A DNA stretch of 64,000 nt from an uncultured Gammaproteobacteria bacterium (GCA_964615985.1 CAZTQX010000001.1:18978-82977); one strand, 5' to 3'; counted from the first letter of the stretch, positions 9,326 through 42,345 are shown. Notes: generated from the sequence alone by a model not told the origin. Program-made: numbers and translations.

Positions 9326-10321
9326 TTGTTTGAGTTTCATAATGAACAGAGTATCCCACAGAAGAAGGTGCTGGCAGTTACTATTTGTTATTGCAACCCT
9401 GTTATGAATATTATTATTTTTACCAAGTCGGGCGCTCGTTCGCGGCAAATCAACTCACCGTTGCAATTTCTCCTATTGGGTTTTCTGTTTTTATCCCTAT
9501 TTGTTACGCCGCTGTATTGGGGGTATCAACTGGGGGTGCATCAAAATCCGAATGAAATGCCTGAGTTGAGTTACGATGAGATTCATCAGCAGCGTGAAAG
9601 TCGCGAGCAGTTGCAGCAGGCGAAATCAGAAGTCACAGCATTGACACGCCATTTGGGGCAGATGCAAGCGTATCTGACCCGTTTGGATGCCTTGGGTGCA
9701 CGTTTGGTTCAAGTGGGGAAATTAGACGATCAAGAGTTTGATTTTAGTCAAGCTCCACCGCTGGGAGGTCCAGTATCTGACCTGATAATGCCTGCGTATA
9801 AAATTTCGGATCTTGCGCAGAGAGCGGCCGCTTTGCAGCAACAGATGCAGCAAAGTGAAGAGATGTTGAGCATTTTAGAAGTGGTGTTGTTGGATCGTCG
9901 TTTGCAAAATGAGATTTTACCCACAGGTCGGCCGATTAAAAAAGGTTGGATGTCATCTGCTTATGGGGTAAGAACCGATCCGTTTTCAGGTAAACCACAG
10001 ATGCACAAAGGCATTGATTTTGCTGGAAAAATGGGTAGTGGGATTTATGCGGTGGCCAGTGGCGTTGTCAGTTGGGCGGGCAAACGCCACGGTTATGGCA
10101 ACATGGTTGAAATTCGCCACGGAAACGGTTACAGCACTCGTTATGCGCACAGTGCTGAAGTGTTGGTGCAAAAAGGCGACCTTGTCAGCCAAGGAGATGA
10201 GGTTGCCAAAATGGGTTCCAGTGGGCGCTCCACAGGGCCTCATGTTCATTTTGAATTGCTGAAAAAAGGCCGTCAGGTTAATCCCGTTAAATTTGTCAAT
10301 GCGCGACGAAAATCTCGTTAA
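9326..10321 (+). CDS. M23 family murein endopeptidase (coiled-coil N-terminus, LytM domain)
   Basis: The C-terminus has the HKGIDFAG and HVHFE zinc-ligand motifs of M23 peptidases. The true start may be the internal Met at 9401 (MNIIIF...). Confidence 0.85.
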   Translation: MFEFHNEQSIPQKKVLAVTICYCNPVMNIIIFTKSGARSRQINSPLQFLLLGFLFLSLFVTPLYWGYQLGVHQNPNEMPELSYDEIHQQRESREQLQQAKSEVTALTRHLGQMQAYLTRLDALGARLVQVGKLDDQEFDFSQAPPLGGPVSDLIMPAYKISDLAQRAAALQQQMQQSEEMLSILEVVLLDRRLQNEILPTGRPIKKGWMSSAYGVRTDPFSGKPQMHKGIDFAGKMGSGIYAVASGVVSWAGKRHGYGNMVEIRHGNGYSTRYAHSAEVLVQKGDLVSQGDEVAKMGSSGRSTGPHVHFELLKKGRQVNPVKFVNARRKSR

Positions 10322-10402
10322 CATCACGATCTGTGCTTAATCCGGTTGGATTCAAGCGCCACAGGTATTACCATACTCCCCTTTTTACCAATGTAACGAT
10401 TT

Positions 10403-10431
10403 CCGTTCAGGCGAGACCCGAACGGTTTTTC
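10403..10431 (+). terminator. hairpin plus T-run between the M23 peptidase gene and secA (terminator or attenuator)
   Basis: CCGTTC-aggcgagaccc-GAACGG followed by TTTTT. It sits 30 nt before the secA ATG. Confidence 0.45.
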
Positions 10432-10461
10432 TATGCTTGAATCTTCACAGGCCGTAACCTC

Positions 10462-14435: not shown

Positions 14436-15395
14436 GTGAGTGGCAAATCTCTGCAAGTGGTGGTGGCAGCGGTCTTCGATCTTGAAGGTCGTCTGCTGAT
14501 TACTCAGCGGGCGGAACAAGCGCATCAAGGTGGCTTGTGGGAGTTGCCCGGCGGTAAGCAAGAGTCTGGTGAGAGTTTTTTTGCGGCGTTGCAACGGGAG
14601 CTGCTGGAAGAGGTGGGGATTCGTATCACGGCCTCTGTGCCACTGATCCAAGTTACCCATCACTATCCCGATTTGAGTGTCTGTCTGCATCTGTGGCGGG
14701 TGACTGCTTTTGAAGGTAAGGCTATAGGGCATGAAGGCCAGCCATTGCGTTGGATTGCTTTATCCGAGTTGCCGAACTATCCCTTCCCCAAAGCCAATCG
14801 TGCCCTGTTTCAGGCACTGAGCCTACCCGATCTCTATCTGATTACCCCCGATCTTGAAAATAACGACATAAATGCTTTTTTAAAGGCTCTGGAGCAAAGT
14901 TTGGCAGCGGGAATCAAGCTGGTGCAGCTACGAGTTAAAAGTCTTGTGGGTGCCGAATATGAAGCTTTGGCGCAGCAGGTGGTGGAGCTGTCGCACCGCT
15001 GGGGAGCAAAAGTCTTGCTCAATGCTCATCCTGATATTTTATCGAGGGTGCAGGCCGATGGGGTTCATTTGAGTCAGGGTTTGGCCGCTTCGTTTTCACA
15101 ACGTCCTGTTGATGATGAGTTTCTATTGGCGGTTTCTTGCCATGATGAGGCCTCGCTACGGCAGGCGGAGTTAATCGGAGCCGATTTTGCCGTCTTGTCA
15201 CCAGTGCAGCAGACCCAGAGCCACCCTGAAGCTGAGGCCTTGGGTTGGTCGGAGTTTCAGCGCTTGGTTGTTGCGGCGGGTTTGCCGATCTACGCCTTGG
15301 GGGGGGTGGGTCGAGAAGATATTTTAACCGCTCAAAGGCAGGGTGCCCAAGGGGTGGCCGCCATTAGAGCATTATGGAGAGAGTGTGATGAATAA
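14436..15395 (+). CDS. mutT: NUDIX 8-oxo-dGTPase (MutT) fused to a thiamine-phosphate-synthase-like (ThiE/TenI fold) domain
   Basis: N-terminal Nudix box GGKQESGESFFAALQRELLEEVGI. The C-terminal ~200 aa forms a TIM-barrel ThiE-like domain. Same fusion and position as downstream of argJ in Pseudomonas. Confidence 0.85.
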   Translation: MSGKSLQVVVAAVFDLEGRLLITQRAEQAHQGGLWELPGGKQESGESFFAALQRELLEEVGIRITASVPLIQVTHHYPDLSVCLHLWRVTAFEGKAIGHEGQPLRWIALSELPNYPFPKANRALFQALSLPDLYLITPDLENNDINAFLKALEQSLAAGIKLVQLRVKSLVGAEYEALAQQVVELSHRWGAKVLLNAHPDILSRVQADGVHLSQGLAASFSQRPVDDEFLLAVSCHDEASLRQAELIGADFAVLSPVQQTQSHPEAEALGWSEFQRLVVAAGLPIYALGGVGREDILTAQRQGAQGVAAIRALWRECDE

Positions 15396-15843
15396 AATGA
15401 TGATTAAGAAAATATTTTTGCTGTGTTTGTTGAGTGGTTGGGTGATGCTCAGTGAGGCTGGTGTGCCTTTTAAGTTGATGTTGGACATAAATGAGTGTGC
15501 CAATCAGCAGGGAGAGTGCCGTTTACATGCTGCCCAGGGAGGCGCTGTTGTACTCTCTTTTGATCATAAGGTGGAAGCCTTGCGGCCTTTTACGGTAGAT
15601 CTCAAGCTTAGCGAATGGCCTACCGAGATTGAAGCCATAGAGCTTAATTTTAAAATGGCCTCGATGGATATGGGTAAAAATCGCTACCGTCTGCTGAAAC
15701 AGGATGACGGTCGTTGGCAGGGTCGGGTGGTTTTACCGGTCTGTGGTGCGGGTGGCAGCGAGTGGTTGGTGGAGATTCAGTTAAAGAGTTCGAACGGCAG
15801 TTGGCACGGTACGGTACCTTTTCGACTGCACGGTAAATCGTAA
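15388..15843 (+). CDS. small secreted protein of unknown function
   Basis: The internal Met MNKMMIKKIFLLCLLSGWVMLSEA reads as a signal peptide. Overlaps the preceding gene's end by 8 nt. I recognise no domain. Confidence 0.5.
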   Translation: MNKMMIKKIFLLCLLSGWVMLSEAGVPFKLMLDINECANQQGECRLHAAQGGAVVLSFDHKVEALRPFTVDLKLSEWPTEIEAIELNFKMASMDMGKNRYRLLKQDDGRWQGRVVLPVCGAGGSEWLVEIQLKSSNGSWHGTVPFRLHGKS

Positions 15844-22665: not shown

Positions 22666-24027
22666 TCATTCTATCCCCATTTTTTTCAGACGATAACGCA
22701 GTTGGCGATAACTGATGCCCAACGCCTCAGCTGCCGCGCTTTTTTTCCAGCGACTTTTTTCCAGTGCCTCCACCAGTGTCTCGCGCTCTTGCTGATTCAT
22801 AATACGATCTAAGGTCTGATTATTCTCATCGTTAGCGGGGGTTTTTTGGGGCTGACGTGCTGTTGCACTGTCTTCGAGTTGCAGATCTGAGCTGTGGATC
22901 TGATTGCCATCTTGCAGAGCCAATGCCCGCTCCAGAATGTTTTCCAGCTCACGAACATTGCCAGGGAAAGCGTAGTGGCTCAGCTTCAGCAAGGCCGACT
23001 GGCTGAGTTGTAGATGGGCCTCGGGGTAGTGACAAGCGAGGCGTTGCAAAATGGCCTGACACAGCTCATCAAGGTCTTCGGGGCGTTCTCTGAGTGGCGG
23101 TATTTTCAGCTCAATGACATTGAGACGGTAGTAGAGATCTTGGCGAAAATGTCCCTGCTCGACCTCTTCGCTGAGATCCTTGTGGCTGGCACTCAAAATA
23201 CGCACATCAATCGGCTCTTCGTGAGTGGCTCCAACGGGACGAATCTGTTTTTCTTGAATGCTACGCAGCAGTTTGACCTGCATCGGCAGAGGCAGATCGG
23301 CAATCTCATCCAGAAACAGCGTGCCACCCTCAGCGGCTTGAAACAGCCCCTCTTTGTTGGCCACCGCACCACTGAAACTGCCTTTGAGATGCCCAAAAAA
23401 CTCACTCTCCATCAATTCGCTGGGAATGGCACCGCAGTTGATGGCGATAAACGGGTTTTGAGCGCGAGGGCTTTGTTGATGAATTTGACGAGCCGCCAGC
23501 TCTTTACCAGTGCCCGACTCGCCACAGATGTAGACCGGTGCTTGATTGCGCGCTAATTTTTTGATGGTGTGGCGCAGCAGCTGCATCGGTTGTGATTGGC
23601 CGATCAGTGGTCGTGATGCTGTCTGTTTGTTTGGTTTAATGCTGGTTTCTGTTTTGTCGTTCAGCCGCAAGGCGGTGTTGATCAGAGTGCGTAGAACCTT
23701 GAGGTCAACGGGTTTGGAGATAAAATCAAACGCGCCTTTTTTTAACGCTTCGACGGCGGACTCCACATTGCCGTGAGCGGTGATCACCGCCACCGGAATT
23801 TGTGGGTACTGTTGCTGGATCAATTCAACCAATTGCAGACCGTTGCCATCGGGCAGGCGCATGTCGGTCAAACAGAGGTCGAACGGCTGTTGGCTCAGAG
23901 CGGTGCGCGCTTGCTGGAGGTCGATGGCGCTGTGGGTCTCAATGCCCATGCGCCCAAGGGTGATCTCCAACAGTTCGCGAATGTCGGCTTCATCGTCAAC
24001 GATCAAGGCAGTAGCGGTTTGGCTCAT
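22666..24027 (-). CDS. pilR: sigma54-dependent response regulator PilR (REC, AAA+, Fis-type HTH)
   Basis: 453 aa with a receiver domain, GESGTGKE Walker A, a GAFTGA-like loop (FSGA) and a C-terminal HTH. Confidence 0.92.
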   Translation of the reverse strand: MSQTATALIVDDEADIRELLEITLGRMGIETHSAIDLQQARTALSQQPFDLCLTDMRLPDGNGLQLVELIQQQYPQIPVAVITAHGNVESAVEALKKGAFDFISKPVDLKVLRTLINTALRLNDKTETSIKPNKQTASRPLIGQSQPMQLLRHTIKKLARNQAPVYICGESGTGKELAARQIHQQSPRAQNPFIAINCGAIPSELMESEFFGHLKGSFSGAVANKEGLFQAAEGGTLFLDEIADLPLPMQVKLLRSIQEKQIRPVGATHEEPIDVRILSASHKDLSEEVEQGHFRQDLYYRLNVIELKIPPLRERPEDLDELCQAILQRLACHYPEAHLQLSQSALLKLSHYAFPGNVRELENILERALALQDGNQIHSSDLQLEDSATARQPQKTPANDENNQTLDRIMNQQERETLVEALEKSRWKKSAAAEALGISYRQLRYRLKKMGIE

Positions 24028-25622
24028 GGGGTTGGGGTATCCAAAGTGTGGTTAAAAATAATACGAAAACAGCTGCCGTGATCGCTGGGGAGGTAACGTA
24101 AAGAGGCATTGTTAAAACGGCACAGTTCGCGTGCCATAAAAAGCCCTAAGCCGGTGCCGGTGTTGCTGGAGGTGTAAAAAGGCTCGAACAGTTTGTCCAG
24201 ATGCTGCTGGGGAATGCCGCTGCCGTTGTCGCTTAAATCCAGATAGGGGTGGCCGGTGGAGGGGGTTTGGCCACAGTGGATGCTGATCTGAATGTTCTCT
24301 TTTTGGCCGTGTTTGATGCTGTTACAGCAGAGGTTCCATAAAATCTGATTCAGGTGCAAAAATTCCATGTAAATGGGTTGGGCTTCGTTGCCAAAGTGCA
24401 GTTGCAGATTTTCTGCTGGCCACTTTTGCTGTTGGCAAAAATCAGCAGAAAATTGCAACAGGCTCTGTTGCAGGTCGATGGCGTGGCCGCTGAATTTTTG
24501 CAGTCGTGAGATCTGCATGACATCTTCGATTAGACGATTGATGCGTTGACCGTGATCGAGAATGATCTCCAACAAACGCCCATCTTCAACGCTGATGTGG
24601 GGTGATTCCGCCAACAGTTGTGAGGCGTGGCTGATGGCACCCAGAGGATTACGAATTTCATGGGCGATGTTGGCCGTCAGGTGGCCAAGGGAAGCGAGTT
24701 TGAGCTGCTGCACTTGTTCTTGAATGGCGGAGGTGTCTTGCAGCGAGATCAACCAGCCTTGGTCTTCCAAAGGAGTGAAGTGCGGTTGCAGTTCCGCTTG
24801 GCTGTTGGGTTCTTTGATTGAGCAGGGCAGCTGTTTTTTAGCCTGATGCCATTGATTCAGTGAGTAGTGCAAACGAGGCGCTTGTTGTTTGAGTGATGAT
24901 TTGTGCTGGAGGTTGGAGAGTTTGAGCAGTTCGCGAGCGCTTCGGTTGGCGAGGCGAATTCGCTGGCGGCTGTCCACCACCAAAATGGCTGCCTCCATTT
25001 TTTCGATGATCAGTTCATTCAACTGCGCCATATTTTTCAGGTCAATGCGACTCTGGGTGGCTTGCGCTTCACTCTCGCGGCTGCGCCGTGCCAGCAGCAT
25101 GGCCAGTAGGGCGGTGGCAAATAGGGTTGCGCCGAGAATGCCCGCTTGTGGGTAGTGGGTACTGCTCTGGCCGAGGCTGAGGTGGCTGTAGAGCTGTTCG
25201 GCCAAAATGGCCAAGCTGGCCAGTGCGGCAAACAGCAGTGCCAGACGTTCGGACATCAACACCCCAAAACCAGCGATGCTGATGATCAGCAGCATTCCCA
25301 AACCGCTGTTGATGCCACCGCTGCTGTGCATCAGCAGTAAAATAAAGCCAATGTCGATGCAGGAGCGGGGGATCAATTGCCTCTCAAAAGCCGGTTGTTG
25401 CAGACGTGCCAAGAGAATAAAAGCCAAACTGCTGAGCAAATAGAGAGTGATGATCAGCATAAACAACAGAGGTTGAGTGGAACCTAAAAAGGGCTTTCCC
25501 AGCTCGGAGAGGTAGGTGGCGATGAGGGTGATGCTGAGCAGCAGACGGTAGCCATCCAGCAGCAGCAGCAGCCGCCAGTTGGAGAGTTGGGTTTTTTGGG
25601 TTGGCGGAGGAGCGTTCAGCAT
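24024..25622 (-). CDS. pilS: sensor histidine kinase PilS
   Basis: 532 aa with six N-terminal TM helices, the H-box HEIRNPL and an HATPase domain. Overlaps pilR by 4 nt. Confidence 0.9.
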   Translation of the reverse strand: MLNAPPPTQKTQLSNWRLLLLLDGYRLLLSITLIATYLSELGKPFLGSTQPLLFMLIITLYLLSSLAFILLARLQQPAFERQLIPRSCIDIGFILLLMHSSGGINSGLGMLLIISIAGFGVLMSERLALLFAALASLAILAEQLYSHLSLGQSSTHYPQAGILGATLFATALLAMLLARRSRESEAQATQSRIDLKNMAQLNELIIEKMEAAILVVDSRQRIRLANRSARELLKLSNLQHKSSLKQQAPRLHYSLNQWHQAKKQLPCSIKEPNSQAELQPHFTPLEDQGWLISLQDTSAIQEQVQQLKLASLGHLTANIAHEIRNPLGAISHASQLLAESPHISVEDGRLLEIILDHGQRINRLIEDVMQISRLQKFSGHAIDLQQSLLQFSADFCQQQKWPAENLQLHFGNEAQPIYMEFLHLNQILWNLCCNSIKHGQKENIQISIHCGQTPSTGHPYLDLSDNGSGIPQQHLDKLFEPFYTSSNTGTGLGLFMARELCRFNNASLRYLPSDHGSCFRIIFNHTLDTPTP

Positions 25623-30040: not shown

Positions 30041-31957
30041 ATGGCGTTAAAAAATATGGCTCGACATCAGCAGAGCGGTGGCGGTGAAAGTGGTGGTACG
30101 GATCGGTGGGTGAAATGCAACGCTGAAGATCAGCGTCGCCATGCGCGGACGATGGCCAAACAGCAGCAGGCGGCGGAGCGGATTGCCGCCGCCTCGACGC
30201 AGTTGGCCAGCGGCGTGACACAGGCGGCCAGCGCCCGTGATCAGCTTTCTGTAGCGGTGAATGAAATTTCAGCGGGTGCGGAACAGGCCAGCGGCGCTTG
30301 TGAGCAGAGCCTGTTTTCGATCACTAAAATCACCACGCAAATCAAGCAACAATCTGACTTAGCGGAAACCTCTTCGAGCAAAGCGGTGGCACTGCAAGTC
30401 TTGGTGGATCGTACCTCTGAGGCGATCAGTAACTTGGTGGATAACGTCAAAGTTGCTGCTGATCGTCAAGCGAGTTCGGTCAAAGTGATGGCGGAGGTGG
30501 AGCAGCAGGCGGCCAATATCAATGAATCGGTCAAACAGGTGATGCGGATTGCCGATCAAACCAACCTGCTGGCACTGAATGCCGCCATCGAAGCCGGGCG
30601 CGCTGGCAAACACGGCAAAGGTTTTGCGGTGGTGGCGGATACGGTGCGTACCTTGGCCGAGACCGCTGAAAAAAACGCCCTTGGCATCGCCAAACAGATT
30701 GAGGTGATTCAAGAGTTGGCGCGCAGCGTCGGGGATTCTGTCACCAAAGCGAGTAAAACCGCCTTGGATGAGGTGGAAAAAGGCCAAGTGATTACCCAGC
30801 AGTTGCAGAGTATCAAGGACGATGTTAACGAGGTTTATCAAGGTTCTCAACGGTTGGAGAGCGGTGCTGAAGATATTAACCGTTCGATCTTAGTGGTACA
30901 AAAAGGCGCGGATGTGATTGCCACCGCTGCCCAAGATCAAGCCAGTGCCGCCGAAGAGGTGGTGGCTTCACTGGATCAACAGGAGCAAGCACTGCGTGAA
31001 TCGGAGCAAGCGTCACAAGGGTTAGAGGTACTCTCAGATGAGTTGAAAAACAGTACCGACATCGCCAAAAGCGCCGAGGAGGTGGCGGCCAGCGCCGAAG
31101 AACTCTCTTCGTCCATCGAAGAAATCAATCGTTCAGCGACTCAAATTAGTTCCGCCATTGAGCAGGTCAGTCGCAGTGCCGAGCAGAGTGCCACCGCCAT
31201 TGAGCAAGCGGTCTCTGGGATTGCCGAAGTTGAAAAAGGCGTGGATCTGGCCACCGAAATCAGTGGCTCTGCATTGCAGCGTTGTAAAAACATTCGTGAG
31301 TTATTGAGTGTTAATAAAACCAGCGTTGATGAAATGATCACAGGCATTGGCGATGCGATGGAGTCAGGTCGTGCCAATCTGAAAAACATCGAAGAGGTGG
31401 AGCAGTTGGCGCGTTTGATTGACAAAGTCACCGATGCCATTGCCACCGTCTCGATTAAAACCGGCATGTTGGCGGTCAATGGAGCGGTGGAAGCGGCGCG
31501 AGCCGGTGAATACGGCAAAGGCTTTGCGGTGGTGTCGTCGGATATCCAAAGTTTGGCTGACGATGCGGCAGAAAATGTCGATCAGATTAAAGACCAAGTG
31601 AAAGCCATTCAGGATCAGGCTTCCAAGGTGCGGATTGATTTGACCGAGGTGGCCAACAGTGCCTTGCAAGAGGTTGAACGCACCAAACAGACCACCACCG
31701 ATCTGCTGGCCATCGAAGAGGATATGAGTGTGATTCAGGATGGCAGTGAGCAACTTGGTCAGGTTGCGACTGAAATATCGGCGGCCAGCAACGAGATCAA
31801 ACGCGGCATGGAGCAGATCGCTGCTGCTGCCGAGCAAGCCAGCAGCAATGCCGAAGAAGCATCCATCGCAGCACGACAACAGTCTCAAGGGGCTGAGGAG
31901 TTGGCGGTGGCCACCGAGGAGATCGCCTCCATTGCGGATGAATTGCAGAGTGCGTAA
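30041..31957 (+). CDS. cytoplasmic methyl-accepting chemotaxis protein with two tandem signalling (MA) domains (DosM-like)
   Basis: 638 aa with no TM segment. Two separate receptor-tip motifs are present, [38 protein letters not shown] and [33 protein letters not shown]. Confidence 0.85.
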
Positions 31958-31987
31958 CGGTCATCCAACAACATCAAGGAGAGTGGT

Positions 31988-33529
31988 ATGACGACGGCAT
32001 TAGCAATTGACAACGATCTGCAACAGCAGCCCGACGAGGATGAAGAGCGTGCAGAGGAGCAGAGTCAATACGTCACCTTTCAAGTGGAGGATGAGGTGTT
32101 TGGTTTCCCGATGGAGTCGGTGCTGGAGATCATCCGTCTGCCCACCACCGTCGAGGTGCCGCTGACCCCCAAAGCACTGCTGGGGCTGGCCAATTTGCGC
32201 GGCAGCGTCTTACCGATTTTGGATCTGCGCCAAGTGCTGCACCTGAACAAAACAACCTACAACGATGCCAGCCGCGTGATCGTCACCGATGTCGGCTCGC
32301 CGGTGGGGCTGGTGGTGGACAAGGTCGCACGGGTGATGCAGGTGGAGCCAGAGTGCATCGACCGCAATGAACAGGTGCAGAACAACATCGGCGCGGAGCT
32401 GCTGGAGGGCGTGATCAAAGGTGGCAGCGGCGAGGCGCTGATTCAACTGCTGAACGTGGAGCAGTTGATCAAAGAGGAGTTCAGCGTGGTGCTGGCGGTG
32501 GCGCAGTCGGAGAGTGCCGAGCGTGAGGTGGGGCTGCTGATGCAGCACGAGGTGGAAGACGACACCGATCAACTGGTCAGTTTTACCCTAGAGGATCAAG
32601 AGTACGCCTTCAACTTATTGGAGGTGGAAGAGATTGTGCGCTTGCCGGAGCAGATCTCCAGTGTGCCGCGCAGCGACGCGCATATTTTGGGCTTGATGGA
32701 CCTGCGTGGGCGATTGCTGCCGTTGGTGAGTCTGCGCTGTCTGCTGGAGTTTGAAGAGGCGCAGAGCATTGACGAAGAGAGCCGTATTTTGGTCGTGAGC
32801 GTGAAAAATGCGCAGGGCAAAAAAGAGTCGGTGGGGCTGGTGGTGGACGATGTGAAGGAGGTTTTGCGGGTGGAAAAAGCGCTGCAAAACACCATGCCGC
32901 CGTTGCTGAACCGCAACGAAGAGAGTGCCGAAATCAGCTCCATCTGTCGTCTGGAAGGGGGTCAACGCTTGGTCTCGGTATTGACTGCTGAATCGCTTTT
33001 CGCGTTGCCCAGCGTGCAGGCGGCGATTCAGACAAAAGAGAGCGAAGCGGAGGCAGAGAGTGAGGTGAACGAGATGAAAGAGGGTGATGACGAAACAGCG
33101 CAACTGGTGGTGTTTTTGTTGGGGCAGCAAGAGTACGGCGTGAGCATTGATGACATTCAGGAGATTACCCGAGTGCCAGAGACGTTGGATAAGGTGCCGA
33201 AAACAGCGGAGTCCATTGAGGGCATGGTCAATCTGCGCGGCACGGTGCTGCCGGTGTTGGACATGCGCAGCCGTTTTGATATGCAGAAGATGGCGCGCAA
33301 CGACCGGCAGCGGATCATTGTGTTTAATCTCAACGGTACGCGCACCGGTTTTATTGTCGATTCGGTGGCGGAGGTGCTGCGTTTACCACGGGATCAGATC
33401 CAAGTGGCACCGCAACTCTCGGACGATCAAGCACGGATTATGGGACGGGTGATCAACCTGAAAAAAGAGCAGCGCATGATTCAAGTGTTGGCGACCGATG
33501 AATTGTTAGCAGAAGAAGTTGATGCGTAG
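31988..33529 (+). CDS. scaffold protein with three tandem CheW domains
   Basis: 513 aa. The CheW-like block (...LGL.NLRG..LPI.DLR...) occurs three times, at roughly residues 30-170, 190-330 and 370-510. Confidence 0.85.
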   Translation: MTTALAIDNDLQQQPDEDEERAEEQSQYVTFQVEDEVFGFPMESVLEIIRLPTTVEVPLTPKALLGLANLRGSVLPILDLRQVLHLNKTTYNDASRVIVTDVGSPVGLVVDKVARVMQVEPECIDRNEQVQNNIGAELLEGVIKGGSGEALIQLLNVEQLIKEEFSVVLAVAQSESAEREVGLLMQHEVEDDTDQLVSFTLEDQEYAFNLLEVEEIVRLPEQISSVPRSDAHILGLMDLRGRLLPLVSLRCLLEFEEAQSIDEESRILVVSVKNAQGKKESVGLVVDDVKEVLRVEKALQNTMPPLLNRNEESAEISSICRLEGGQRLVSVLTAESLFALPSVQAAIQTKESEAEAESEVNEMKEGDDETAQLVVFLLGQQEYGVSIDDIQEITRVPETLDKVPKTAESIEGMVNLRGTVLPVLDMRSRFDMQKMARNDRQRIIVFNLNGTRTGFIVDSVAEVLRLPRDQIQVAPQLSDDQARIMGRVINLKKEQRMIQVLATDELLAEEVDA

Positions 33530-33591
33530 GTTGGTGCAAAGGAGCAAAGCGACGTGCCCAACATGATTGAGACGATAAAGAGGAGTTAACT

Positions 33592-34668
33592 ATGCGGAAG
33601 GTTTTGGTTGTTGATGACTCAGCATTGATGCGAAAACAGCTGAGTGACATTTTGATGCAGGGCGGTTACGAGGTACAGACCGCTCGTAACGGTGAGGAGG
33701 GGCTGAACAAGATCGCCTCGTTTGATCCGATGGTGGTGACGCTGGATCTGAACATGCCGGTGATGGACGGCATGACCTGTTTGAGTTTGATTATGCAGAA
33801 ATTTCCACGACCGGTGGTGATGGTCTCCTCGCTGACCGAAAAGGGCGCGTTGGCGACCTTTGAGGCCTTGGAGTTGGGGGCGATGGATTATGTCGCCAAA
33901 CCTGGTGGCACGGTTTCGGTCAACATTCGTGAGGTGGCCGAAGATCTGTTGGCCAAGGTCAATGCCGCTGCCTCAGCGCGGATCAGACCCCGTCGAAAAA
34001 TCGCTGTCAAACCAAGGGCGGTGACAAAGAAAAAACCGGTCAACCTTCAGTGTTCGGAGGGGGTGGTGATCATCGGGGTCTCAACCGGTGGGCCACGCAC
34101 TTTGGAAGGGGTGATTGCCGAGCTACCGCAGACGTTCCCCTTGCCGATTGTGGTGGTACAGCACATGCCCGCCAGTTTTACCGGTCTGTTTGCCGAGCGC
34201 TTGAATAAGTTATCGGCAGTGACGGTAATGGAGCTGGATAAGCCGACTTTTTTGGAGGCGGGCACGGTGTTGGTCGCCAAGGGCAATGCCGATGTGAAAT
34301 TGATCCGCCGCAGCGGTCGTTTGATGGCCTGTCTGACTCCCGAGTCAGGGAAGTTTCTTTGGCATCCCAGCGTGGAGCGGTTGGCAAAATCGGTGCAGCA
34401 GGTCTGTGATCCTGAGCGAGTAATTGCGGTGCAGTTGACCGGCATGGGCAGCGACGGCGCACAGACGATGGCAGAGCTGCATCAACAGGGAGCACGCACC
34501 ATCGCCGAGTCGGAGCAGACGGCGGTGGTTTATGGGATGCCGCGTGAATTGGTGGAGCGGGGGGGCGCTGAGAAAATCCTGCCCTGTGACGAGATCGCTG
34601 CGCAGTTGGTGCGCTGGACAAACGAGATGGCCAAAATGACTCAAGCGCGTCAGTTGGCGCACGCTTAG
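33592..34668 (+). CDS. cheB: chemotaxis methylesterase CheB (REC plus methylesterase)
   Basis: MRKVLVVDDSALMRKQL receiver followed by a C-terminal CheB esterase domain (GVSTGGP, GMP). Confidence 0.92.
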   Translation: MRKVLVVDDSALMRKQLSDILMQGGYEVQTARNGEEGLNKIASFDPMVVTLDLNMPVMDGMTCLSLIMQKFPRPVVMVSSLTEKGALATFEALELGAMDYVAKPGGTVSVNIREVAEDLLAKVNAAASARIRPRRKIAVKPRAVTKKKPVNLQCSEGVVIIGVSTGGPRTLEGVIAELPQTFPLPIVVVQHMPASFTGLFAERLNKLSAVTVMELDKPTFLEAGTVLVAKGNADVKLIRRSGRLMACLTPESGKFLWHPSVERLAKSVQQVCDPERVIAVQLTGMGSDGAQTMAELHQQGARTIAESEQTAVVYGMPRELVERGGAEKILPCDEIAAQLVRWTNEMAKMTQARQLAHA

Positions 34669-34677
34669 GAGGATTTA

Positions 34678-35295
34678 ATGGGTTTTAAAAAAGCAGTTAT
34701 TGAAGATGAGTTGGATACCGTGCTGCTGGAGCGTGATTACGTCACCTTGTTGGCGGAGTTGCAGAGCGAGTTGGTGGCCGAGCGCCGCGATGCGGTGCGG
34801 GAATTGGCAGATTATCCGCAGTCGGTGGTGGCGCTGCTGAATGTTTTGGATGAGGAGCCAGATCATCTGGTGCGCGAGGCGTTGCTGATGAGCTTGCAGC
34901 AGATCGGCGGCGAGACGGTGGTCTCGGGTCTGATTAACTTGCTGCGTTCCGAGGATGCGGTGCTGAGAAACGGTGCCATCGAAGTGTTGCAGAGTATGCC
35001 CGAAGGGGTGGCGCTGCACATGTTGGAGCTGCTGAACGATCAAGATTCTGATGTGCGTATTTTTGCCATCGACATTTTGCAGCAGTTGGCGCATCCGCAA
35101 GCACCGGAGTGGTTGCTGTCGGTGCTCAAAGATGAGACTCACATCAATGTCGTGACCACCGCTGTGGATCGGCTGGCGGAGGTGGGGCGACCGGAGATGG
35201 TGCCGGAGTTGGAGGCGATCAAAGCGCGTTTTCCTGATGAACCTTATTTGGCGTTTGCGGTGGATCTTGCCAGCCGCCGCATTGAGAAGGTTTGA
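34678..35295 (+). CDS. HEAT/PBS-lyase-type repeat protein
   Basis: 205 aa of 4-5 HEAT-like repeats (VRxxAxxxL...) sitting between cheB and cheR. Confidence 0.75.
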   Translation: MGFKKAVIEDELDTVLLERDYVTLLAELQSELVAERRDAVRELADYPQSVVALLNVLDEEPDHLVREALLMSLQQIGGETVVSGLINLLRSEDAVLRNGAIEVLQSMPEGVALHMLELLNDQDSDVRIFAIDILQQLAHPQAPEWLLSVLKDETHINVVTTAVDRLAEVGRPEMVPELEAIKARFPDEPYLAFAVDLASRRIEKV

Positions 35296-36158
35296 TTATG
35301 TTGGCCTCTCCTGTGGCACCTTCGCAGAGCTGCATCACCGATGTGGAGTTTGAGCGTTTTCGAGATTTTTTCTATCGTAAAACCGGGATTAAATTTGAGG
35401 GCAGCAAACGTTATTTTGTCGATAAACGTCTGCTGGAGCGGATGCAGCAGACGGGGCACAGCAGTTTTCGCAGCTATTTTACCTTTATGCGTTTTCAAGC
35501 CACGCGGGATGAGCTGCAAGAGCTGATCAACAGCATGACGGTCAATGAGACCTATTTCTTTCGTGAGGAGTATCAATTCAAGTGCATGGCGGAGGAGCTG
35601 CTGAACGAGGTGGTGCGCAACAAAGCCAAGGGTGAGGGGATTCGCATCTGGTCGATCCCTTCTAGCAGTGGCGAAGAGCCGTACTCCATCGCTCTCTATC
35701 TGTTGGAGCATTGGCCTTTGCTGAATAAAATTGATGTGGAGATCTGTTCCTCGGACATCGACAGCAAGATGTTGCAGAACTGTCGCAAGGGTATCTACAG
35801 CCAGCGGTCGGTGAAGCAGTTGCCCAAGGCATTGCTAAAACGCTACTTCAAAGAGCTGCCAGGCGAGCGATTTCAGATTGACCGCGAATTGCGGGAGTCG
35901 ATTCAGTTCACGCAGGTGAACCTCAGTGATCGGGCGCAAGCGCGGCGTTACAGAAACTTTGATCTGATTTTTTGCCGTAACTTATTGATCTACTTCGATG
36001 AAGCCTCACGCCGTCAGGCGGCGGAGCTGTTTTACGATGCGCTGAACCCTGGGGGATATATTTTTCTGGGGCATTCGGAGTCCATGAGTCGGATCTCGTC
36101 GCTGTTTTCGGTGCGTAAATTTTCTAAAGCGCTGGCCTACCAGAAACCGCTTCGATAG
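35292..36158 (+). CDS. cheR: chemotaxis receptor methyltransferase CheR
   Basis: 288 aa SAM-dependent MTase with CheR N- and C-domains (IWSIPSSSGEEPYSIA, FCRNLLIYFD). Confidence 0.92.
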   Translation: MIMLASPVAPSQSCITDVEFERFRDFFYRKTGIKFEGSKRYFVDKRLLERMQQTGHSSFRSYFTFMRFQATRDELQELINSMTVNETYFFREEYQFKCMAEELLNEVVRNKAKGEGIRIWSIPSSSGEEPYSIALYLLEHWPLLNKIDVEICSSDIDSKMLQNCRKGIYSQRSVKQLPKALLKRYFKELPGERFQIDRELRESIQFTQVNLSDRAQARRYRNFDLIFCRNLLIYFDEASRRQAAELFYDALNPGGYIFLGHSESMSRISSLFSVRKFSKALAYQKPLR

Positions 36159-36166
36159 GAGTTGAA

Positions 36167-36541
36167 TTGAGTATGAAAAAAATTCTAATTGTGGACGATG
36201 CGTTAACAGTTCGTCTTTATCACCGTCAGTTGATGGAGGGTTTGGGCTTTGAAGTGGGTGAGGCAGAGAACGGCATCGAGGCGTTGGAAAAGGGTTTGAG
36301 CGAGCCGTTTGATCTCTTTTTGGTGGATGTGAACATGCCGAAAATGGACGGTTATCGACTGGTGGAAGAGATGCGCCAAGATCCGAGTTTGGCCGCTGTG
36401 CCGGTGATTATGATCAGCACCGAGGAGTCAGAGCAGGATCGCGAGAAAGCCTATCTGAGCGGGGCTAATTTTTATGTGGTGAAACCGGCGGATGTGTCGG
36501 AGTTGCAGACCTACGCTACGTTGCTGGCCGGAGGAGTCTAG
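36167..36541 (+). CDS. cheY: single-domain response regulator CheY
   Basis: 124 aa receiver with KKILIVDD, D57-equivalent LFLVDVNMP and K109-equivalent VVKP. Confidence 0.9.
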   Translation: MSMKKILIVDDALTVRLYHRQLMEGLGFEVGEAENGIEALEKGLSEPFDLFLVDVNMPKMDGYRLVEEMRQDPSLAAVPVIMISTEESEQDREKAYLSGANFYVVKPADVSELQTYATLLAGGV

Positions 36542-36543
36542 TT

Positions 36544-39171
36544 ATGGATCCTATATTGGCCTATTTTCTATCGGAATCACGAGAGAATCTGGAGAGTGCA
36601 GGCCGCTGTTTTTTGGAGCTGGAGCAGACTCCTGACGGCAGCGAGTTATTGGATGATCTGTTTCGTGCCATTCACACCATGAAAGGCTCTTCGGGGCTGT
36701 TTGATATTCCGCCGTTTACCAAAACGGTGCATGCCGCTGAGGATCTGTTGGATCAGGTGCGCAGCGGCGAGGTGATCTTGAGCGCGGAACACATCGACTT
36801 GCTGTTGGAGGTGATGGATCAGATCTCACTCTGGTTGGATGAGCTGGAGTCGCAGGGCTGTTTACCCAGCAATGCGCTGGATGCTGGCGAAGGCTTGAGT
36901 GCCGAGTTACGCGCCATCTACCGTTCAGAGTTAGAGCAAGAGTTGCCTGTGGCAGAGGTGACTCCGACTGCGGTTTCTCAAGAGGCCCTTTCAGAAGCGC
37001 CAACATGGTTGCAGCGGGTGGATGACGGCGAGCGTATGGTGCTGTTTGAGATGCTGCAAACACCTGATAAAGAGTTGACGGCGATTGAGTATCGACCCGC
37101 TGCGGGCTGTTTTTTCAGTGGCGATGATCCGTTACACGTCATGCGTAATCTGCCCGATCTCTGCTGGTTGGCGGTGACTTCTGAGAATGAGTGGCCTGTA
37201 GCAGAAGAGAGGGATCTTTATCAGTGTAATCTGCGTTTTTACGCTCTGAGCTGGGCGAGCAAAACGGAGTTGCAGCACTGTTTTCGTTATCAGATTGAGC
37301 GGGTGACGTTGACATCGTTACAGTCTTCGCAGTTGGTGTTTGCTGAGGGTGTTTGGGGTGACGAGGAGCCGTTTGAGCTGTTTTTACAGCAGGTTCCTGA
37401 ATGGGTGGTGGGGCAAGATTGGTCGCGGTTGGCGGTCTTGATTAAGCCGCTGCTGGAGCTGAGCGGCGCTGAGTTACAGCAGACCTCGGTGCTGCGTTGG
37501 CTGCGCCTGTTGTTGCAGCACGACTGCCAAGATGCAGAATTGTTCCGCTCTCTGTTGGAGGTGATGACCGAGGGCATCTTGCTCTGGCCAGAGCAAGATG
37601 AGGCGGTTGCTGTGGCGGTTTCGACAGAGCAGCGCCAAGCGGCACAGCAGGCGTTGCAGACACAGCGGCAGATTTTGAGTATGCCTTGTGGCGAGGGTGC
37701 GATGCAGGGACGCATCGCCTCGGTCTCGATGGTGATGAGCAACATGATGCAGTTGCTGGGAATGTCGGTGGAGCCGTTGTTGGCGGCACGAGATGCCGCA
37801 AGGCAGAGCGATTGTTTAGATCCGCTGTTGCAGTTTTTGCACGGGTTGGATTTTGTTGCGGTGGCCGAGCCAGTTGCAGAATCTAAGCCACGGCAGTCCG
37901 CTTTGGCACCCTTGTCGCTGTTGCCGCCTGCGGTTGAGCGGCGTAAGTCAGAGCGACGGCTGGACAGTCGTCGTCAAGAGCTTGAAATCCCAGCGATAAA
38001 GACCCTGAAGGTGGATCAACAGCGCATCGACAGTCTGATGGATCTGGTGGGTGAGCTGGTGGTGGCGAAAAATGCGCTGCCTTTTTTGGCTAAACGCGCC
38101 GAAGAGCATTTTGGTGTGCGCCAACTGGCCAAGGAGATCAAAAGTCAATACACAGTGATCAATCGCCTTTCGGAAGAGCTGCAAGGGGCGATGATGCAGA
38201 TCCGTATGGTGCCGATCTCCACCGTTTTTCAGCGTTTTCCGCGTTTGGTGCGGGATCTGTCGCGCAAGCTGGATAAACAGGTGGAGCTGAAATTGGAGGG
38301 TGAGGAGACCGAAGCGGATAAAAACGTGGTGGAAAACTTGGCCGATCCGCTGATTCACTTGGTGAGAAACAGCTTGGATCACGGTTTGGAGAGTGTTGAA
38401 GAGCGCCTCAAGGCGGGTAAACCGGCCAACGGCACCATTACTCTACGCGCCATTGGTCAGGATGATCAGGTGGTGATTGAGATTTGCGATGATGGTCGTG
38501 GCATCGATCCTGGAAAAATCAAACACAAAGCCTATCAAAAGGGTCTGTTGGATGAGCAGCGGCTTGACAGCATCAGCGATCATGAGGCATTGCAGTTTAT
38601 TTTTGCCGCTGGTCTTACCACTGCTGAGACGGTTTCTGATCTGTCGGGGCGCGGGGTGGGGATGGATGTGGTGCGCTCGGTGATTCAGGCGGCGGGTGGC
38701 ACGGTGGAGGTGAGCAGCGAATTGGGGCAAGGCAGCACGGTGCGTTTAAGCCTGCCGCTGTCGATGGCGGTCAGTCGCGTGATGATGATTGAGGTGGCGG
38801 AGCAGAGTTACGGCATTTCCATGGAAAACATCATTGAGACGGTACGCATTCCTCGTGCGGCGGTGCAGCGCATCAAGCAGAGCGAGGCGTTGGTGCTGCG
38901 TGAACGCTTGATTCCGCTGTTTTCCTTGCGGATGTTGCTGGGGCTAGCGCCGATGCAGCAGCAGCCAGAAGAGATTGCGGTGTTGGTGATGATGTTGGGC
39001 AAGGAGGAGGTGGCGTTGGTGATTGATGAGTTTCACGAAGGGATTGATATTATTCAAAAACCGTTGGAGGGGGTAATGGCCAATTATCCGTTCTATTCGG
39101 GCGCGACCTTGCTGGGGGATGGGCGGGTGTTGTTGGTGTTGAATACTCCGGAGTTGTTGGCATGTCGATAA
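36544..39171 (+). CDS. cheA: chemotaxis histidine kinase CheA (Hpt, dimerisation, HATPase, CheW-like)
   Basis: 875 aa with Hpt AIHTMKGSSGLFDI, the G-boxes DDGRGID and GRGVGMDVV, and a C-terminal CheW-like domain. A long ~450 aa insert lies between Hpt and the dimerisation domain. Confidence 0.92.
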   Translation: MDPILAYFLSESRENLESAGRCFLELEQTPDGSELLDDLFRAIHTMKGSSGLFDIPPFTKTVHAAEDLLDQVRSGEVILSAEHIDLLLEVMDQISLWLDELESQGCLPSNALDAGEGLSAELRAIYRSELEQELPVAEVTPTAVSQEALSEAPTWLQRVDDGERMVLFEMLQTPDKELTAIEYRPAAGCFFSGDDPLHVMRNLPDLCWLAVTSENEWPVAEERDLYQCNLRFYALSWASKTELQHCFRYQIERVTLTSLQSSQLVFAEGVWGDEEPFELFLQQVPEWVVGQDWSRLAVLIKPLLELSGAELQQTSVLRWLRLLLQHDCQDAELFRSLLEVMTEGILLWPEQDEAVAVAVSTEQRQAAQQALQTQRQILSMPCGEGAMQGRIASVSMVMSNMMQLLGMSVEPLLAARDAARQSDCLDPLLQFLHGLDFVAVAEPVAESKPRQSALAPLSLLPPAVERRKSERRLDSRRQELEIPAIKTLKVDQQRIDSLMDLVGELVVAKNALPFLAKRAEEHFGVRQLAKEIKSQYTVINRLSEELQGAMMQIRMVPISTVFQRFPRLVRDLSRKLDKQVELKLEGEETEADKNVVENLADPLIHLVRNSLDHGLESVEERLKAGKPANGTITLRAIGQDDQVVIEICDDGRGIDPGKIKHKAYQKGLLDEQRLDSISDHEALQFIFAAGLTTAETVSDLSGRGVGMDVVRSVIQAAGGTVEVSSELGQGSTVRLSLPLSMAVSRVMMIEVAEQSYGISMENIIETVRIPRAAVQRIKQSEALVLRERLIPLFSLRMLLGLAPMQQQPEEIAVLVMMLGKEEVALVIDEFHEGIDIIQKPLEGVMANYPFYSGATLLGDGRVLLVLNTPELLACR

Positions 39172-39401
39172 GTTACAAAAAAACCGTGGCCAAGTTGAGT
39201 GATTTTTGCACCATCGAAGAGGCAGAGCCGTTGTGGGAGTGGCTGTTGGCCAACCCCAACGGCAAGCTGAATCTCAAAACCTTGCAGCATCCGCACAGCG
39301 CGGTGTTGCAGGTGATGATGGCCAATCGGATTTCGGTCTCGGTCTGGCCTGACGATGCTCAGATGACTTTTTGGTTGCAGGCGGCGCTGCGGGATGGCTG
39401 A
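39162..39401 (+). CDS. small conserved-position hypothetical protein (79 aa)
   Basis: Overlaps the cheA end by 10 nt and the ParA-like start by 8 nt, which suggests translational coupling. I recognise no motif; a STAS-like fold is speculative. Confidence 0.45.
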   Translation: MSISYKKTVAKLSDFCTIEEAEPLWEWLLANPNGKLNLKTLQHPHSAVLQVMMANRISVSVWPDDAQMTFWLQAALRDG

Positions 39402-40173
39402 GTGGCAACAGCCGTTGACGCTGGCGATCAGCAATCGTAAAGGCGGCTCGGGTAAAACCACCACGGCGGTGAACTTGGCGGCTGAGTGGGGGCGGCAGGG
39501 GCATCGTGTGCTGTTGATTGATCTGGACAGCCAAGGTCATGCCGCCATCGGTGTGGGCTGTCGAGCGGCGCGGCGTTCGGAGGAGCATGTGCATCAACTG
39601 CTGCATCGACCGGAGTTGGCTTTGATGGACTTGGTGCAGTTAACGCCGATTCGTAACGTCTGCTTGGCTCCGGCCAACACTGATTTTTGTGCGCAAGAGC
39701 TGCCGGTGTTGATCTTAAAGCAGGCGTTGCAGAGCGAGGCGGTGGCGGTGGCCTTTGATCGGGTGGTGTTGGATACCCCGCCGACGATGGATTCGTTGTT
39801 GATCAGTGCGTTGGTGGCGGCGCATTCGGTGTTGGTGCCGTTTGTGCCGCACCATTTATCTGCGGTGGGCGTGCGCCAACTGGCGAAGCTGTTTTATAAG
39901 GTGGCGACGCTGCACAATTCTGACTTGAGGTTGTTGGGTCTGCTGCCGATCATGATGGATCGGAAGTTGAAATTGCAGCAGCGGGTGATGGCGGATTTGG
40001 GGCAGCAGTTCGGACGTGAACGAATCTTGCGAGGCATTCGCAGCAACATCAAATTGGCTGAGGCTTTCGAAGCAGGTGAGCCGATTTTTTCCTACGCTCC
40101 GCGCAGTTCAGGGGCGATGGATTATCAGCTAATGGCTGAGGAGTTGGAGCTTTTTTTTAATCGTAAAGAGTGA
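39394..40173 (+). CDS. ParA/MinD-family P-loop ATPase (chemosensory-array partitioning candidate, ParC/PpfA-like)
   Basis: Deviant Walker A ISNRKGGSGKTTTAVNLAA, 259 aa, embedded in the che operon. Confidence 0.85.
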   Translation: MAEWQQPLTLAISNRKGGSGKTTTAVNLAAEWGRQGHRVLLIDLDSQGHAAIGVGCRAARRSEEHVHQLLHRPELALMDLVQLTPIRNVCLAPANTDFCAQELPVLILKQALQSEAVAVAFDRVVLDTPPTMDSLLISALVAAHSVLVPFVPHHLSAVGVRQLAKLFYKVATLHNSDLRLLGLLPIMMDRKLKLQQRVMADLGQQFGRERILRGIRSNIKLAEAFEAGEPIFSYAPRSSGAMDYQLMAEELELFFNRKE

Positions 40174-40176
40174 GGT

Positions 40177-40551
40177 GTGATGATGAAAAAAATCATGTTG
40201 GTGGATGATTCTATGACCCTGTTGATGAGTATGCAGGGCGTTTTGAAACGTGCGGGTTTTGAGGTGGCCACCGCCAGCAGCGGTCATCAGGCGCTGCGAG
40301 ATATGGGGGCGTTTGCTCCGGATATGGTGATCACCGATCTGAATATGCCGGGGATGGATGGCATTGAGTTTATTAGGGAGACGAAAAAATTGGCGGCCAT
40401 GCGTTTTAAACCGATGTTGATGTTGACCACCGAGTCGCAGCAGGGCAAACGCGATGAGGCCAAGCGGGCGGGGGCGATGGGCTGGTTGGTGAAACCGGTG
40501 GCTCCAGAGCAGTTGACTCAGGTGGTGCGGCAGGTGCTGCCAGGAGCGTGA
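40177..40551 (+). CDS. cheY: single-domain response regulator (CheY-like)
   Basis: 124 aa receiver with MKKIMLVDDS, VITDLNMPGMDG and LVKP. Confidence 0.88.
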   Translation: MMMKKIMLVDDSMTLLMSMQGVLKRAGFEVATASSGHQALRDMGAFAPDMVITDLNMPGMDGIEFIRETKKLAAMRFKPMLMLTTESQQGKRDEAKRAGAMGWLVKPVAPEQLTQVVRQVLPGA

Positions 40552-40575
40552 GGCGGTGATTTTTATGAAGAATTT

Positions 40576-40584
40576 TGTTTCCCC
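40576..40584 (+). repeat. C9 homopolymeric tract in the promoter/5' region of the terminal MCP gene
   Basis: ...gttt CCCCCCCCC gagtaaaagtgag... lies 52-60 nt upstream of the ATG at 40636. Confidence 0.9.
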
Positions 40585-40635
40585 CCCCCGAGTAAAAGTG
40601 AGTTTAATTCTTTTGAATGTCAACTGGAAAATAAG

Positions 40636-42345
40636 ATGAGTTCGATTACAGCCTCTCCGATACGCCATCTCATCGTTGTTATTACGGTTGGTTTTGTGGC
40701 GGTTTTTCTGTTGGTGTGGCTGTTATCTGCACCCTTATTTTTATTGTTGCTGGATTTTGATCTCCTCTATCAGCAATCATTGTTGGCGGCGGTCAGCGCC
40801 AGCATGGTCTTCTGGGTTCTTTTTTCATTTGAGTTGAAAACATCGCGGCACAGACAGGTGATCAATGCGAACCTGCATCGGCGGCAACTTTCGACTCAAA
40901 CGAAAAGCGTCTGTCAAAAAAGTGAAATGGGTTCTGCTTTGTTGTTAAGTCATCTGAACCGCTGTCAACAGCAGGTGGCGGACTTTCACAGCGAGATGCA
41001 GCAGCCGTTGTTGGAGCTGTTGGGTGAGTTAAACAGCCGCCAACAGCAGCAACGGCTGTTGGCGTTGCAAGGCGATTGTGAGCAGCGTATCGAGACACTG
41101 CGCGAGACGTTGGAGCAGGATTCTGAGGCGATGTTGCTGGCGCTGGCTGATGATGAGGTGGTTTTGTCAACGGAGCTGTTGCTGCAACAGAGTCGCACGG
41201 TGGAGAAAATCAGTGGGTTTGCGTTGCAGGGTGCGCTGGCCAGTCAGAATGCTTTGCAGTTGTGGGTTCGTTTGACCCTACCGGATGCGGAGTTGGCGCG
41301 GGAAAGTGACGTGAGTCAGCAGGTGGAAGCGATTCGAGAACAGGGTTTGGAGTACGCTCTGGATGTGGTGGAGCAGATGTTGTTGACGTACAAACAGGTG
41401 GAGGAGTTTCATCATATTCTGGATTCGCAATTGGATGGCGTTGAGCAGTTGACCGAAGAGGCATCGATGGATCTGATGCAGAACATTCAGCAGATTGAGT
41501 CGGCGGCTGAGGATTCAATGCATCAGGTGCGTAAAGCGATTACAGACTCTGCCAGCTTGAGTCAGTGCGGTCAGAGCCGTGTCAGTTCCATTCAGAACAG
41601 CATTGATGATCTGCGCGCTTATGTGGATGAGCGTAAAAGTGACAATATCAATCACTCACAGCAGATTGAGCAGGTCTTACAGGAGGTTGGTAAGTTGAGC
41701 GGTTTGGCTGAGATGGTGAAAAACATCGCCTTTCAGACCAATATTTTGGCGCTTAATGCATCAATTGAAGCGGCACGAGCTGGGCAAGCGGGCAAAGGGT
41801 TTTCGGTGGTGGCCGGTGAGGTACGCCGTTTATCGGAGCAGTCAGAAGAGGCCGCCAATCACATCGGCGAGGGGATTGAAAAAGCGATTGGTTCGGCGCA
41901 TCAACAGATGGATTATCTGTTGGATGAGGAACGTATGGCCAATGAAAATCGGCGTTTAACGGCTTTTGTGACAGATTTGAGTCAGATGGCGGGTATGTAC
42001 GCGGAGTTAGAGAACTTGAATCAGACACTCTTTGATCAGACTTCAAGCAATGTGGAGAAAATTACCAGCTTGACCGTGGAGACTTTCGCGCGGATTCAAT
42101 TTCAGGATATCACGCGCCAACGGTTGGAACAGATCAAGACAGCCCATGAGATGATTGATCGCCATATTATGGCGTTACCGGCGGCGATTTTGGAAAAGAG
42201 TGCGTTTTACGCTCTGGACGGTTTGGAGCTGGATGCGCTTTATGAGGGCTACTACATGGAAGATCAGCGCCAAATTCATCAGCAAGCCACCGGCATGGCT
42301 TGCCCAACCCCGCAGCCAGAGCTGCCTAAGATTGAGCTGTTTTAA
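40636..42345 (+). CDS. transmembrane methyl-accepting chemotaxis protein
   Basis: 569 aa with two N-terminal TM helices and the tip motif [38 protein letters not shown]. Confidence 0.88.

Follow-up and report, generated by a model that had tools for sequence, protein, structure and literature searches.

A small protein with a predicted STAS fold is coupled to CheA in F9-class chemosensory operons in which a ParA-like ATPase is optional

Chemosensory operons of the F9 class are recognized by two signatures, a receptor with a double signalling domain (DosM) and a triple CheW scaffold protein (PMC9321776, PMC7534058). Cluster I of Vibrio cholerae belongs to this class and forms purely cytoplasmic double-layer arrays whose function is unknown (PMC7534058, PMC9321776). 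Published F9 gene orders are written as [DosMW3B.RYA.YM] for V. cholerae and [DosMW3B.RYA..Y] for Rhodospirillum rubrum, in which the dots stand for unnamed genes (S6 Table of PMC9321776). A link between cytoplasmic arrays and ParA homologues encoded by che operons was first drawn in 2010, and the listed species include R. rubrum and Halorhodospira (PMC2829493). An experimental precedent is PpfA of Rhodobacter sphaeroides, which positions cytoplasmic arrays on the nucleoid (PMC3964821, PMC11407121). A small protein, CheS, which consists only of a STAS domain, is known from Sinorhizobium meliloti and Agrobacterium; according to the passage of PMC12654446 that cites Dogra 2012, it binds CheA and alters its handling of two CheY proteins. 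Here, a window of 64,000 nucleotides (nt) from an uncultured Gammaproteobacteria bacterium (GCA_964615985.1 CAZTQX010000001.1:18978-82977) was analysed, in which cheA is followed by a gene for a protein of 79 amino acids (aa) and by a gene for a ParA-like ATPase. All coordinates refer to this window unless another locus is named.

These two genes lie in the distal part of a chemosensory operon of the F9 class. The class assignment is made because the soluble receptor of the operon carries two MCPsignal stretches and its CheW protein three CheW stretches, and because the gene order fits the published F9 orders. It can be written as DosM-W3-B-x-R-Y-A-x(-x)-Y-M, and the same order was found in about 60 genome loci. 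The window cluster resembles V. cholerae cluster I in having DosM, CheW3 and the same succession of genes including an unnamed gene after cheA, and differs from it in that two unnamed genes instead of one follow cheA. The list of open reading frames (ORFs), together with Pfam and NCBIfam scans, placed 11 plus-strand genes at 30041-42345, separated by tiny or negative intergenic gaps, and a promoter and terminator consensus scan inside the cluster gave no signal above chance.

The F9 CheA histidine kinase of the window (875 aa, 36544-39171, +) shows Hpt, H-kinase_dim, HATPase_c and CheW-like domains in Pfam scans. The ORF for the 79-aa protein (39162-39401, +) starts with an ATG 10 nt inside cheA, and the overlap of the cheA stop with this start, ATGTCGATAA (39162-39171, +), forms a translational-coupling junction. 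Its own stop overlaps the start of the ParA-like gene by 8 nt, ATGGCTGA (39394-39401, +). Both overlaps had been described in the original prediction, whose coordinates were reproduced. The same prediction had placed a ParA/MinD-type ATPase inside the che operon and immediately after cheA; the ATPase and its location in the operon stand, but the 79-aa gene lies between the two.

A short frame without any Pfam or NCBIfam match for the window protein might be taken for a chance product of the cheA-parA junction that encodes no protein, and a first word-index search, which returned only two relatives (94% and 56% identity), could be cited in favour of that view. The relative with 56% identity stands in a like context, in which the end of cheA, an 80-aa gene, ParA and CheY follow each other. 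An exhaustive search with a hidden Markov model (HMM) yielded 572 cluster representatives at E<=1e-3, 148 of them at E<=1e-10, and nearly all of these proteins are 75-100 aa long and match over their full length. The family corresponds to no Pfam family, and all of its named members are annotated as "hypothetical protein" in public sources. Homologues with E values from 1e-19 to 7e-37 were found at the same position in 68 genome loci, and the 80 metagenome loci collected with the family as seed repeat the arrangement. Loci of alpha-, beta-, gamma- and deltaproteobacteria share this position, with proteins that are 30-60% identical. In a family alignment of 153 sequences, H45 (152/153) and Q50 (151/153) are essentially invariant, and P63, L24, A47, W27 and A21 are nearly so. 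Conservation of this kind, together with a recognised fold modelled at high confidence (see below), refutes the view of a chance frame, whose probability we regard as negligible. The 79-aa ORF is a real and conserved gene, and the translational coupling that had been proposed for it is borne out.

Several further features of the family were noted. The semi-conserved residues C16 (85/153), C41 (109/153) and H43 (122/153) accompany the invariant H45 and may form a metal or redox site with it; the window copy has L41, so that such a site would not be universal. Disordered C-terminal tails of 60-100 aa occur in some members (P0168, P0210, P0220, P0225, P0230, P0246, P0266; L167 6001-6483), and several of these tails contain Arg/Lys-rich patches. 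The long family members (134-180 aa) were checked for domain fusions and showed only disordered tails and no Pfam domain. In high-GC loci, long ORFs that run through cheA into the small gene were rejected as fusions of the two and represent open frames.

The gene neighbourhood was compared in two sets of loci. The first consists of 80 genome loci seeded on the ParA-like protein (its top 80 genome matches), 68 of which carry the small gene, and the second of 80 metagenome loci for which the small protein served as seed (scan alignment of 25 sequences). Wherever the upstream gene could be tested, it was cheA: the small gene directly follows cheA in 142/142 loci (66/66 ParA-seeded and 76/76 small-protein-seeded). 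Across approximately 150 loci, the gap between the cheA stop and the start of the small gene is almost everywhere -10, -4, -1 or +2 nt. The position of the ParA-like gene varies. It lies directly 3' of the small gene in 46 of the 68 genome loci and is displaced in the other 22, all of which except one (L077) show the layout CheA-STAS-CheY-MCP-(CheY)-ParA, where MCP denotes a methyl-accepting chemotaxis protein. Among 45 testable loci of the second set, ParA was adjacent in 11, displaced in 2 and absent over at least 3 kb downstream in 32. Taking both sets together, the 24 displaced ParA genes are found about 0.5-6.8 kb (mostly 1.4-6.8 kb) past the small gene, with CheY and MCP genes in between except in L077. 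ParA-free F9 clusters with the small gene are also present on an annotated Eleftheria terrae plasmid and in locus L167. The second cheY of the cluster comes after ParA, or directly after the small gene where ParA is absent. On the strength of these linkage counts in both sets, the small protein is a core, CheA-coupled component of F9 clusters and the ParA-like ATPase an optional module. In locus L088, the ORF between the small gene and cheY (10261-10593) is short and weakly similar to ParA (67 bits); it may be the remnant of a lost ParA gene.

We consider it moderately probable that the small protein is an F9 core STAS protein that is translated together with CheA and binds and tunes it, and that the ParA-like ATPase serves as an optional module for array positioning. 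Through the overlapping stop and start codons, the 79-aa protein would be translated in step with CheA. It would then bind the kinase and tune either its activity or the phosphotransfer from it to the cluster's two CheY proteins, while the ParA-like ATPase would position or segregate the cytoplasmic F9 array in the way that PpfA does in Rhodobacter. That stop and start codons are coupled throughout suggests that the protein is made together with CheA and, from there, that the two are physical partners. F9 systems, including V. cholerae cluster I, build cytoplasmic double-layer arrays of unknown input, output and purpose, and one unnamed dot after cheA in the published surveys turns out to be a universally conserved, CheA-coupled STAS protein, which offers a concrete and testable component of F9 signalling. 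A comparison of species with and without the ParA-like ATPase could show how cytoplasmic arrays are inherited.

The original prediction had favoured a different role, in which the 79-aa protein is a dedicated adaptor of the ParA-like ATPase that links it to the array or stimulates its ATPase activity, as ParP does for ParC and the N-terminus of TlpT for PpfA. The two genes are indeed adjacent in the window and in 46 genome and 11 metagenome loci, often with overlapping codons; STAS proteins can bind P-loop ATPases, and structures of the MlaB-MlaF pair are among the fold matches of the small protein; and a few members of the family carry the disordered basic tails mentioned above. The linkage data speak against this proposal, because the small gene is tied to cheA, to which it is invariably joined, and not to parA. 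ParA is missing from 32 of the 45 testable small-protein-seeded loci and stands apart from the small gene, behind CheY and MCP genes, in the displaced loci other than L077. Conversely, some loci with close relatives of the ParA-like protein (L009, L037, L039, L056, L059) have no small gene within 10 kb, and the long-tailed member P0210 is encoded in a ParA-free F9 cluster. An adaptor function is therefore rated as quite unlikely, and this part of the prediction is not supported.

The alternative that had been offered alongside it, a STAS-like regulator, agrees with the structural modelling. AlphaFold2, supplied with 110 homologues, produced a model of the 79-aa protein with alternating beta strands and alpha helices at a predicted local distance difference test score (pLDDT) of 95.0 and a predicted template modelling score (pTM) of 0.84. 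A search with the model recovered the alternating beta-alpha fold of SpoIIAA. On the basis of this model, the protein is assigned as a minimal STAS-fold protein, and it is new and unannotated. The assignment is based on the profile search, synteny, the AlphaFold2 model and the fold matches. STAS proteins such as SpoIIAA and RsbV bind ATPases of the GHKL type, and the P4 domain of CheA is a GHKL ATPase; this domain (HATPase_c) is present in the CheA of the window. By analogy, the 79-aa protein would most likely act as a partner of CheA in the manner of CheS or SpoIIAA. The likeness to CheS of the S. meliloti and Agrobacterium F5 operons extends to its small size, the STAS-only architecture and its occurrence in a che operon with two CheY genes. 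A CheS-like protein of Shinella is also a sub-threshold match to the Pfam family STAS_2, as are members of the 79-aa family. CheS, which enhances CheY1 binding, is some 20-30 residues longer than the 79-aa protein, and the invariant H45 and Q50 are peculiar to the latter. The 79-aa protein differs from SpoIIAA and RsbV, to which its identity is 11-19%, in that its phospho-Ser position is not conserved and that the F9 cluster contains neither an anti-sigma factor nor a PP2C phosphatase.

The second gene behind cheA (39394-40173, +) starts with an ATG 8 nt inside the 79-aa ORF and encodes a ParA/Soj-like deviant Walker A ATPase of 259 aa. The protein contains the motif NRKGGSGKTT at residues 14-23, and matches the Pfam families AAA_31 (8.9e-33; 114 bits at a cut-off of 27) and, above threshold, CbiA. 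K16, K21, D43, D45, D127 and R216 are invariant in 27 homologues, from which the protein is expected to be an active ATPase. Among solved structures, those of Soj/ParA proteins come closest, led by Thermus Soj (4e-38), and MinD and McdA follow at a great distance. Homologues with 45-67% identity to the window protein are found in alpha-, beta-, gamma- and deltaproteobacteria, nearly always within F9 clusters or next to them, and its top 80 genome matches lie almost all in or beside such clusters. The same type is carried by R. rubrum and Halorhodospira, both already counted as species with PpfA homologues in che operons (PMC2829493). A partition ParA of plasmid or chromosomal origin was considered and rejected. 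Within PLSDB (72,556 plasmids), true plasmid ParA proteins reach at most 36% identity to the window ParA, compared with the 43-67% found within F9 clusters, and the only matches above 36% are ParA proteins of F9 clusters that are carried by plasmids of Methylosinus and Methylobacterium. No parB was found next to the window gene, whose neighbours are the STAS gene and cheY, and the NCBIfam model ParA_partition scored 90.8 at a cut-off of 180. The ParA-like protein is thus placed, by sequence comparison, in a Soj-like group specific to F9 clusters; it is a known kind of protein (a che-operon ParA) that belongs to an uncharacterised F9-specific group.

This ATPase probably positions the cytoplasmic F9 array, an assignment that is made by analogy. 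A close parallel is PpfA, another small Soj-like ParA that has no ParB partner and whose che operon gives rise to a cytoplasmic array. Unlike the window gene, PpfA adjoins tlpT in cheOp3, whose gene order (PMC3964821) is other than that of the F9 cluster, and its partner is the N-terminus of TlpT. ParC of the F6 systems of Vibrio and Pseudomonas is similar in being a ParA-like ATPase within a che cluster that governs array placement. It differs in that it works with the CheW-like ParP at the cell pole and on membrane arrays, whereas the window cluster is of class F9 and has no ParP-like gene; no single-domain CheW gene was found next to the window ParA. In a Soj alignment, K220 corresponds to R211 of Thermus Soj, and R237 to S228 of Thermus Soj and to the Lys of 'ydiKsngs' in Helicobacter pylori Soj. 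Compared with the DNA-binding residues of Soj, the pattern of K220, R237 and R216, the last of them one residue before Soj R208, would be compatible with DNA binding, although it is no proof of it. When the plasmid collection was searched by tblastn with the ParA-like protein, the C-terminus of CheA and Escherichia coli CheZ, and a locus on a Vibrio chromosome 2 was inspected, only clusters of the F9, F7, F5 and E. coli types came up and no ParC or PpfA. Features specific to F9 clusters with ParA were looked for and none was found: the MALVKK and RKARTxAKQQ motifs of DosM occur in clusters with and without ParA, for which reason the DosM N-terminal motifs were rejected as a candidate ParA partner.

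The ParA-like ATPase almost always adjoins a CheY gene, either downstream (STAS-ParA-CheY) or, in the displaced layout, upstream (CheY-ParA), and CheY-ParA pairs also occur away from F9 genes (L056, L059, L062, L073, L080). From this arrangement one might suppose that the ATPase does not position the array but serves the neighbouring CheY as its target or effector, and so belongs to the F9 output. We think this improbable, because the adjacent layout amounts to an insertion of ParA before a CheY that is present anyway, and because no precedent was found in the literature searched. The catalytic residues and the basic K220 and R237 fit a Soj-like nucleoid-binding ATPase, and PpfA is a direct precedent for the positioning of cytoplasmic arrays. 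In the displaced-type clusters, an extra CheY is encoded directly 5' of ParA, and the isolated CheY-ParA pairs (at approximately 9600-10750 in L056 and L059) show no other F9 genes within 10 kb upstream. Other observations concern the loci themselves. The F5-type che cluster of Shinella sp. PSBB067 (L164) ends, after cheB, with an unrelated ParA-like gene of 235 aa that is VirC1/MipZ-like (14948-15655). The F9 cluster on plasmid pOB3b1 of Methylosinus trichosporium OB3b (L162, NZ_CP023738.1) is broken into many short ORFs; a second assembly of OB3b (NZ_CP119870.1) has an intact CheA, which makes sequencing errors likelier than decay. PLSDB also includes whole or second chromosomes, mostly unannotated, such as those of Aeromonas caviae (4.9 Mb), Shinella (4.6 Mb) and Vibrio (1.3-1.8 Mb) (NZ_AP026896.1, NZ_CP069303.1, NZ_CP045351.1 and others).

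Several points weigh against the proposal of a CheA-binding STAS protein accompanied by an array-positioning ATPase. The window copy of the small protein gave no match to STAS_2 (PF13466) at E<=0.1 and lies below every STAS threshold; across the family, 64 of 110 members matched at E<=1 (best 8.1e-6), and two members that were rescanned singly scored about 17-18 bits at a cut-off of 29.2. The genetic position is not that of CheS, which is encoded upstream of cheY1-cheA in F5 clusters, whereas in F9 clusters the 79-aa gene comes directly after cheA. An hhalign comparison of the family profile with a single CheS-like ORF from the Shinella F5 cluster reached only E=0.1, although the aligned segments were collinear; at the sequence level the family is not demonstrably CheS. 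In a gapless hand alignment of the segment KLNLKTLQHPHSAVLQVMM with VLNLGQLTFMDSSGLGVIL of SpoIIAA, S46 of the window protein would pair with the phospho-Ser. This residue, at the start of helix 2, is directly preceded by the invariant H45. Position 46 is occupied by T (71), S (21), A (43), P (5), G (5) or C (4) in the family, and because the phospho-Ser equivalent is S/T in only about 60% of members (Ala in 28%), a classical phosphorylation switch does not appear to be general. CheA binding is itself argued from gene order and analogy. With respect to the ATPase, the invariant R216 is shifted in the alignment and stands one residue before R208 of Soj. Five ParA/MinD ATPases are listed for V. 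cholerae in a review that treats all of them as studied (PMC11407121), which suggests that the F9 cluster of this species lacks the ParA described here, and the V. cholerae F9 arrays apparently form without it. The unnamed gene after V. cholerae cheA1 would, judged by gene order, encode a homologue of the STAS protein; neither homology search returned a Vibrio member of the 79-aa family, and the paper that mentions V. cholerae VC1396 does no more than list it among the genes of the operon.

The STAS fold and the alignment of S46 also permit the idea that the 79-aa protein is a partner-switching output, a STAS protein of the anti-sigma-factor-antagonist type that connects the F9 system to transcription through its state of phosphorylation or its choice of binding partner, a role that has been proposed for the STAS genes of ancestral F7 clusters. 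An S/T residue is found at this position in about 60% of the family, the output of F9 systems is unknown, and ancestral F7 clusters carry STAS genes (anti-sigma antagonists) together with a serine phosphatase (PMC7184735). The conserved F9 cluster contains no gene for an anti-sigma kinase, a PP2C phosphatase or a sigma factor, about 40% of members have Ala, Pro, Gly or Cys in place of S/T at position 46, and the universal stop-start coupling points to a stoichiometric partner of CheA. A transcriptional output of this type is regarded as unlikely. A more specific and somewhat speculative extension of the proposed CheA partnership is that the family represents an unrecognised kind of STAS protein that docks on the GHKL-type P4 domain of the F9 kinase as SpoIIAA does on SpoIIAB, with His45 and Gln50 at the start of helix 2 placed beside the kinase active site; we would give this a small but appreciable chance. 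If true, chemosensory arrays of this class would harbour a partner switch, or indeed an alternative phospho-acceptor, and the protein could be the missing handle on the function of F9 systems, V. cholerae cluster I included.

The remaining genes of the operon are all encoded on the plus strand. The cluster opens with the DosM-type soluble chemoreceptor (638 aa, 30041-31957), whose two MCPsignal stretches (Pfam, 1.6e-49) are an F9 signature and whose gene heads the conserved cluster in about 60 loci. The N-termini of DosM (30041-30170 in the window; L006-L166) consist of a MAL(V/K)KK peptide, about 25 variable residues and a basic motif (RKARTxAKQQ). DosM is followed by the second signature protein, the triple CheW-domain scaffold CheW3 (31988-33529; Pfam CheW in three stretches, 4.7e-90), and by the methylesterase CheB (33592-34668; CheB_methylest and Response_reg). 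Between cheB and cheR lies the gene for an F9 accessory protein of 205 aa with HEAT repeats (34678-35295; HEAT_2, 2.2e-20). This protein accounts for the other unnamed dot of the published F9 orders, and its position is kept in nearly all F9 loci examined; the gene is absent from a divergent soil subgroup (L123, L126, L134, L136, L137, L139, L140). The methyltransferase CheR (35292-36158; CheR and CheR_N) and the first of two CheY-like receivers (36167-36541; Response_reg, 1.5e-26) precede cheA. In CheA, residues ~96-485 (36829-37998), a stretch of approximately 390 residues between the Hpt and dimerisation domains, match no Pfam family; the stretch sits where a P2 domain is expected and is a candidate docking region for the 79-aa protein. 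Behind the ParA-like gene, the second CheY-like receiver (40177-40551; Response_reg, 4.3e-26) and a membrane-anchored MCP (40636-42345), identified by NCBIfam MCP matches and its conserved position, complete the cluster. Outside the F9 operon, on the minus strand, an ORF of about 460 aa (22669-24051) was matched by a CheB query in phmmer at E<=1e-5.

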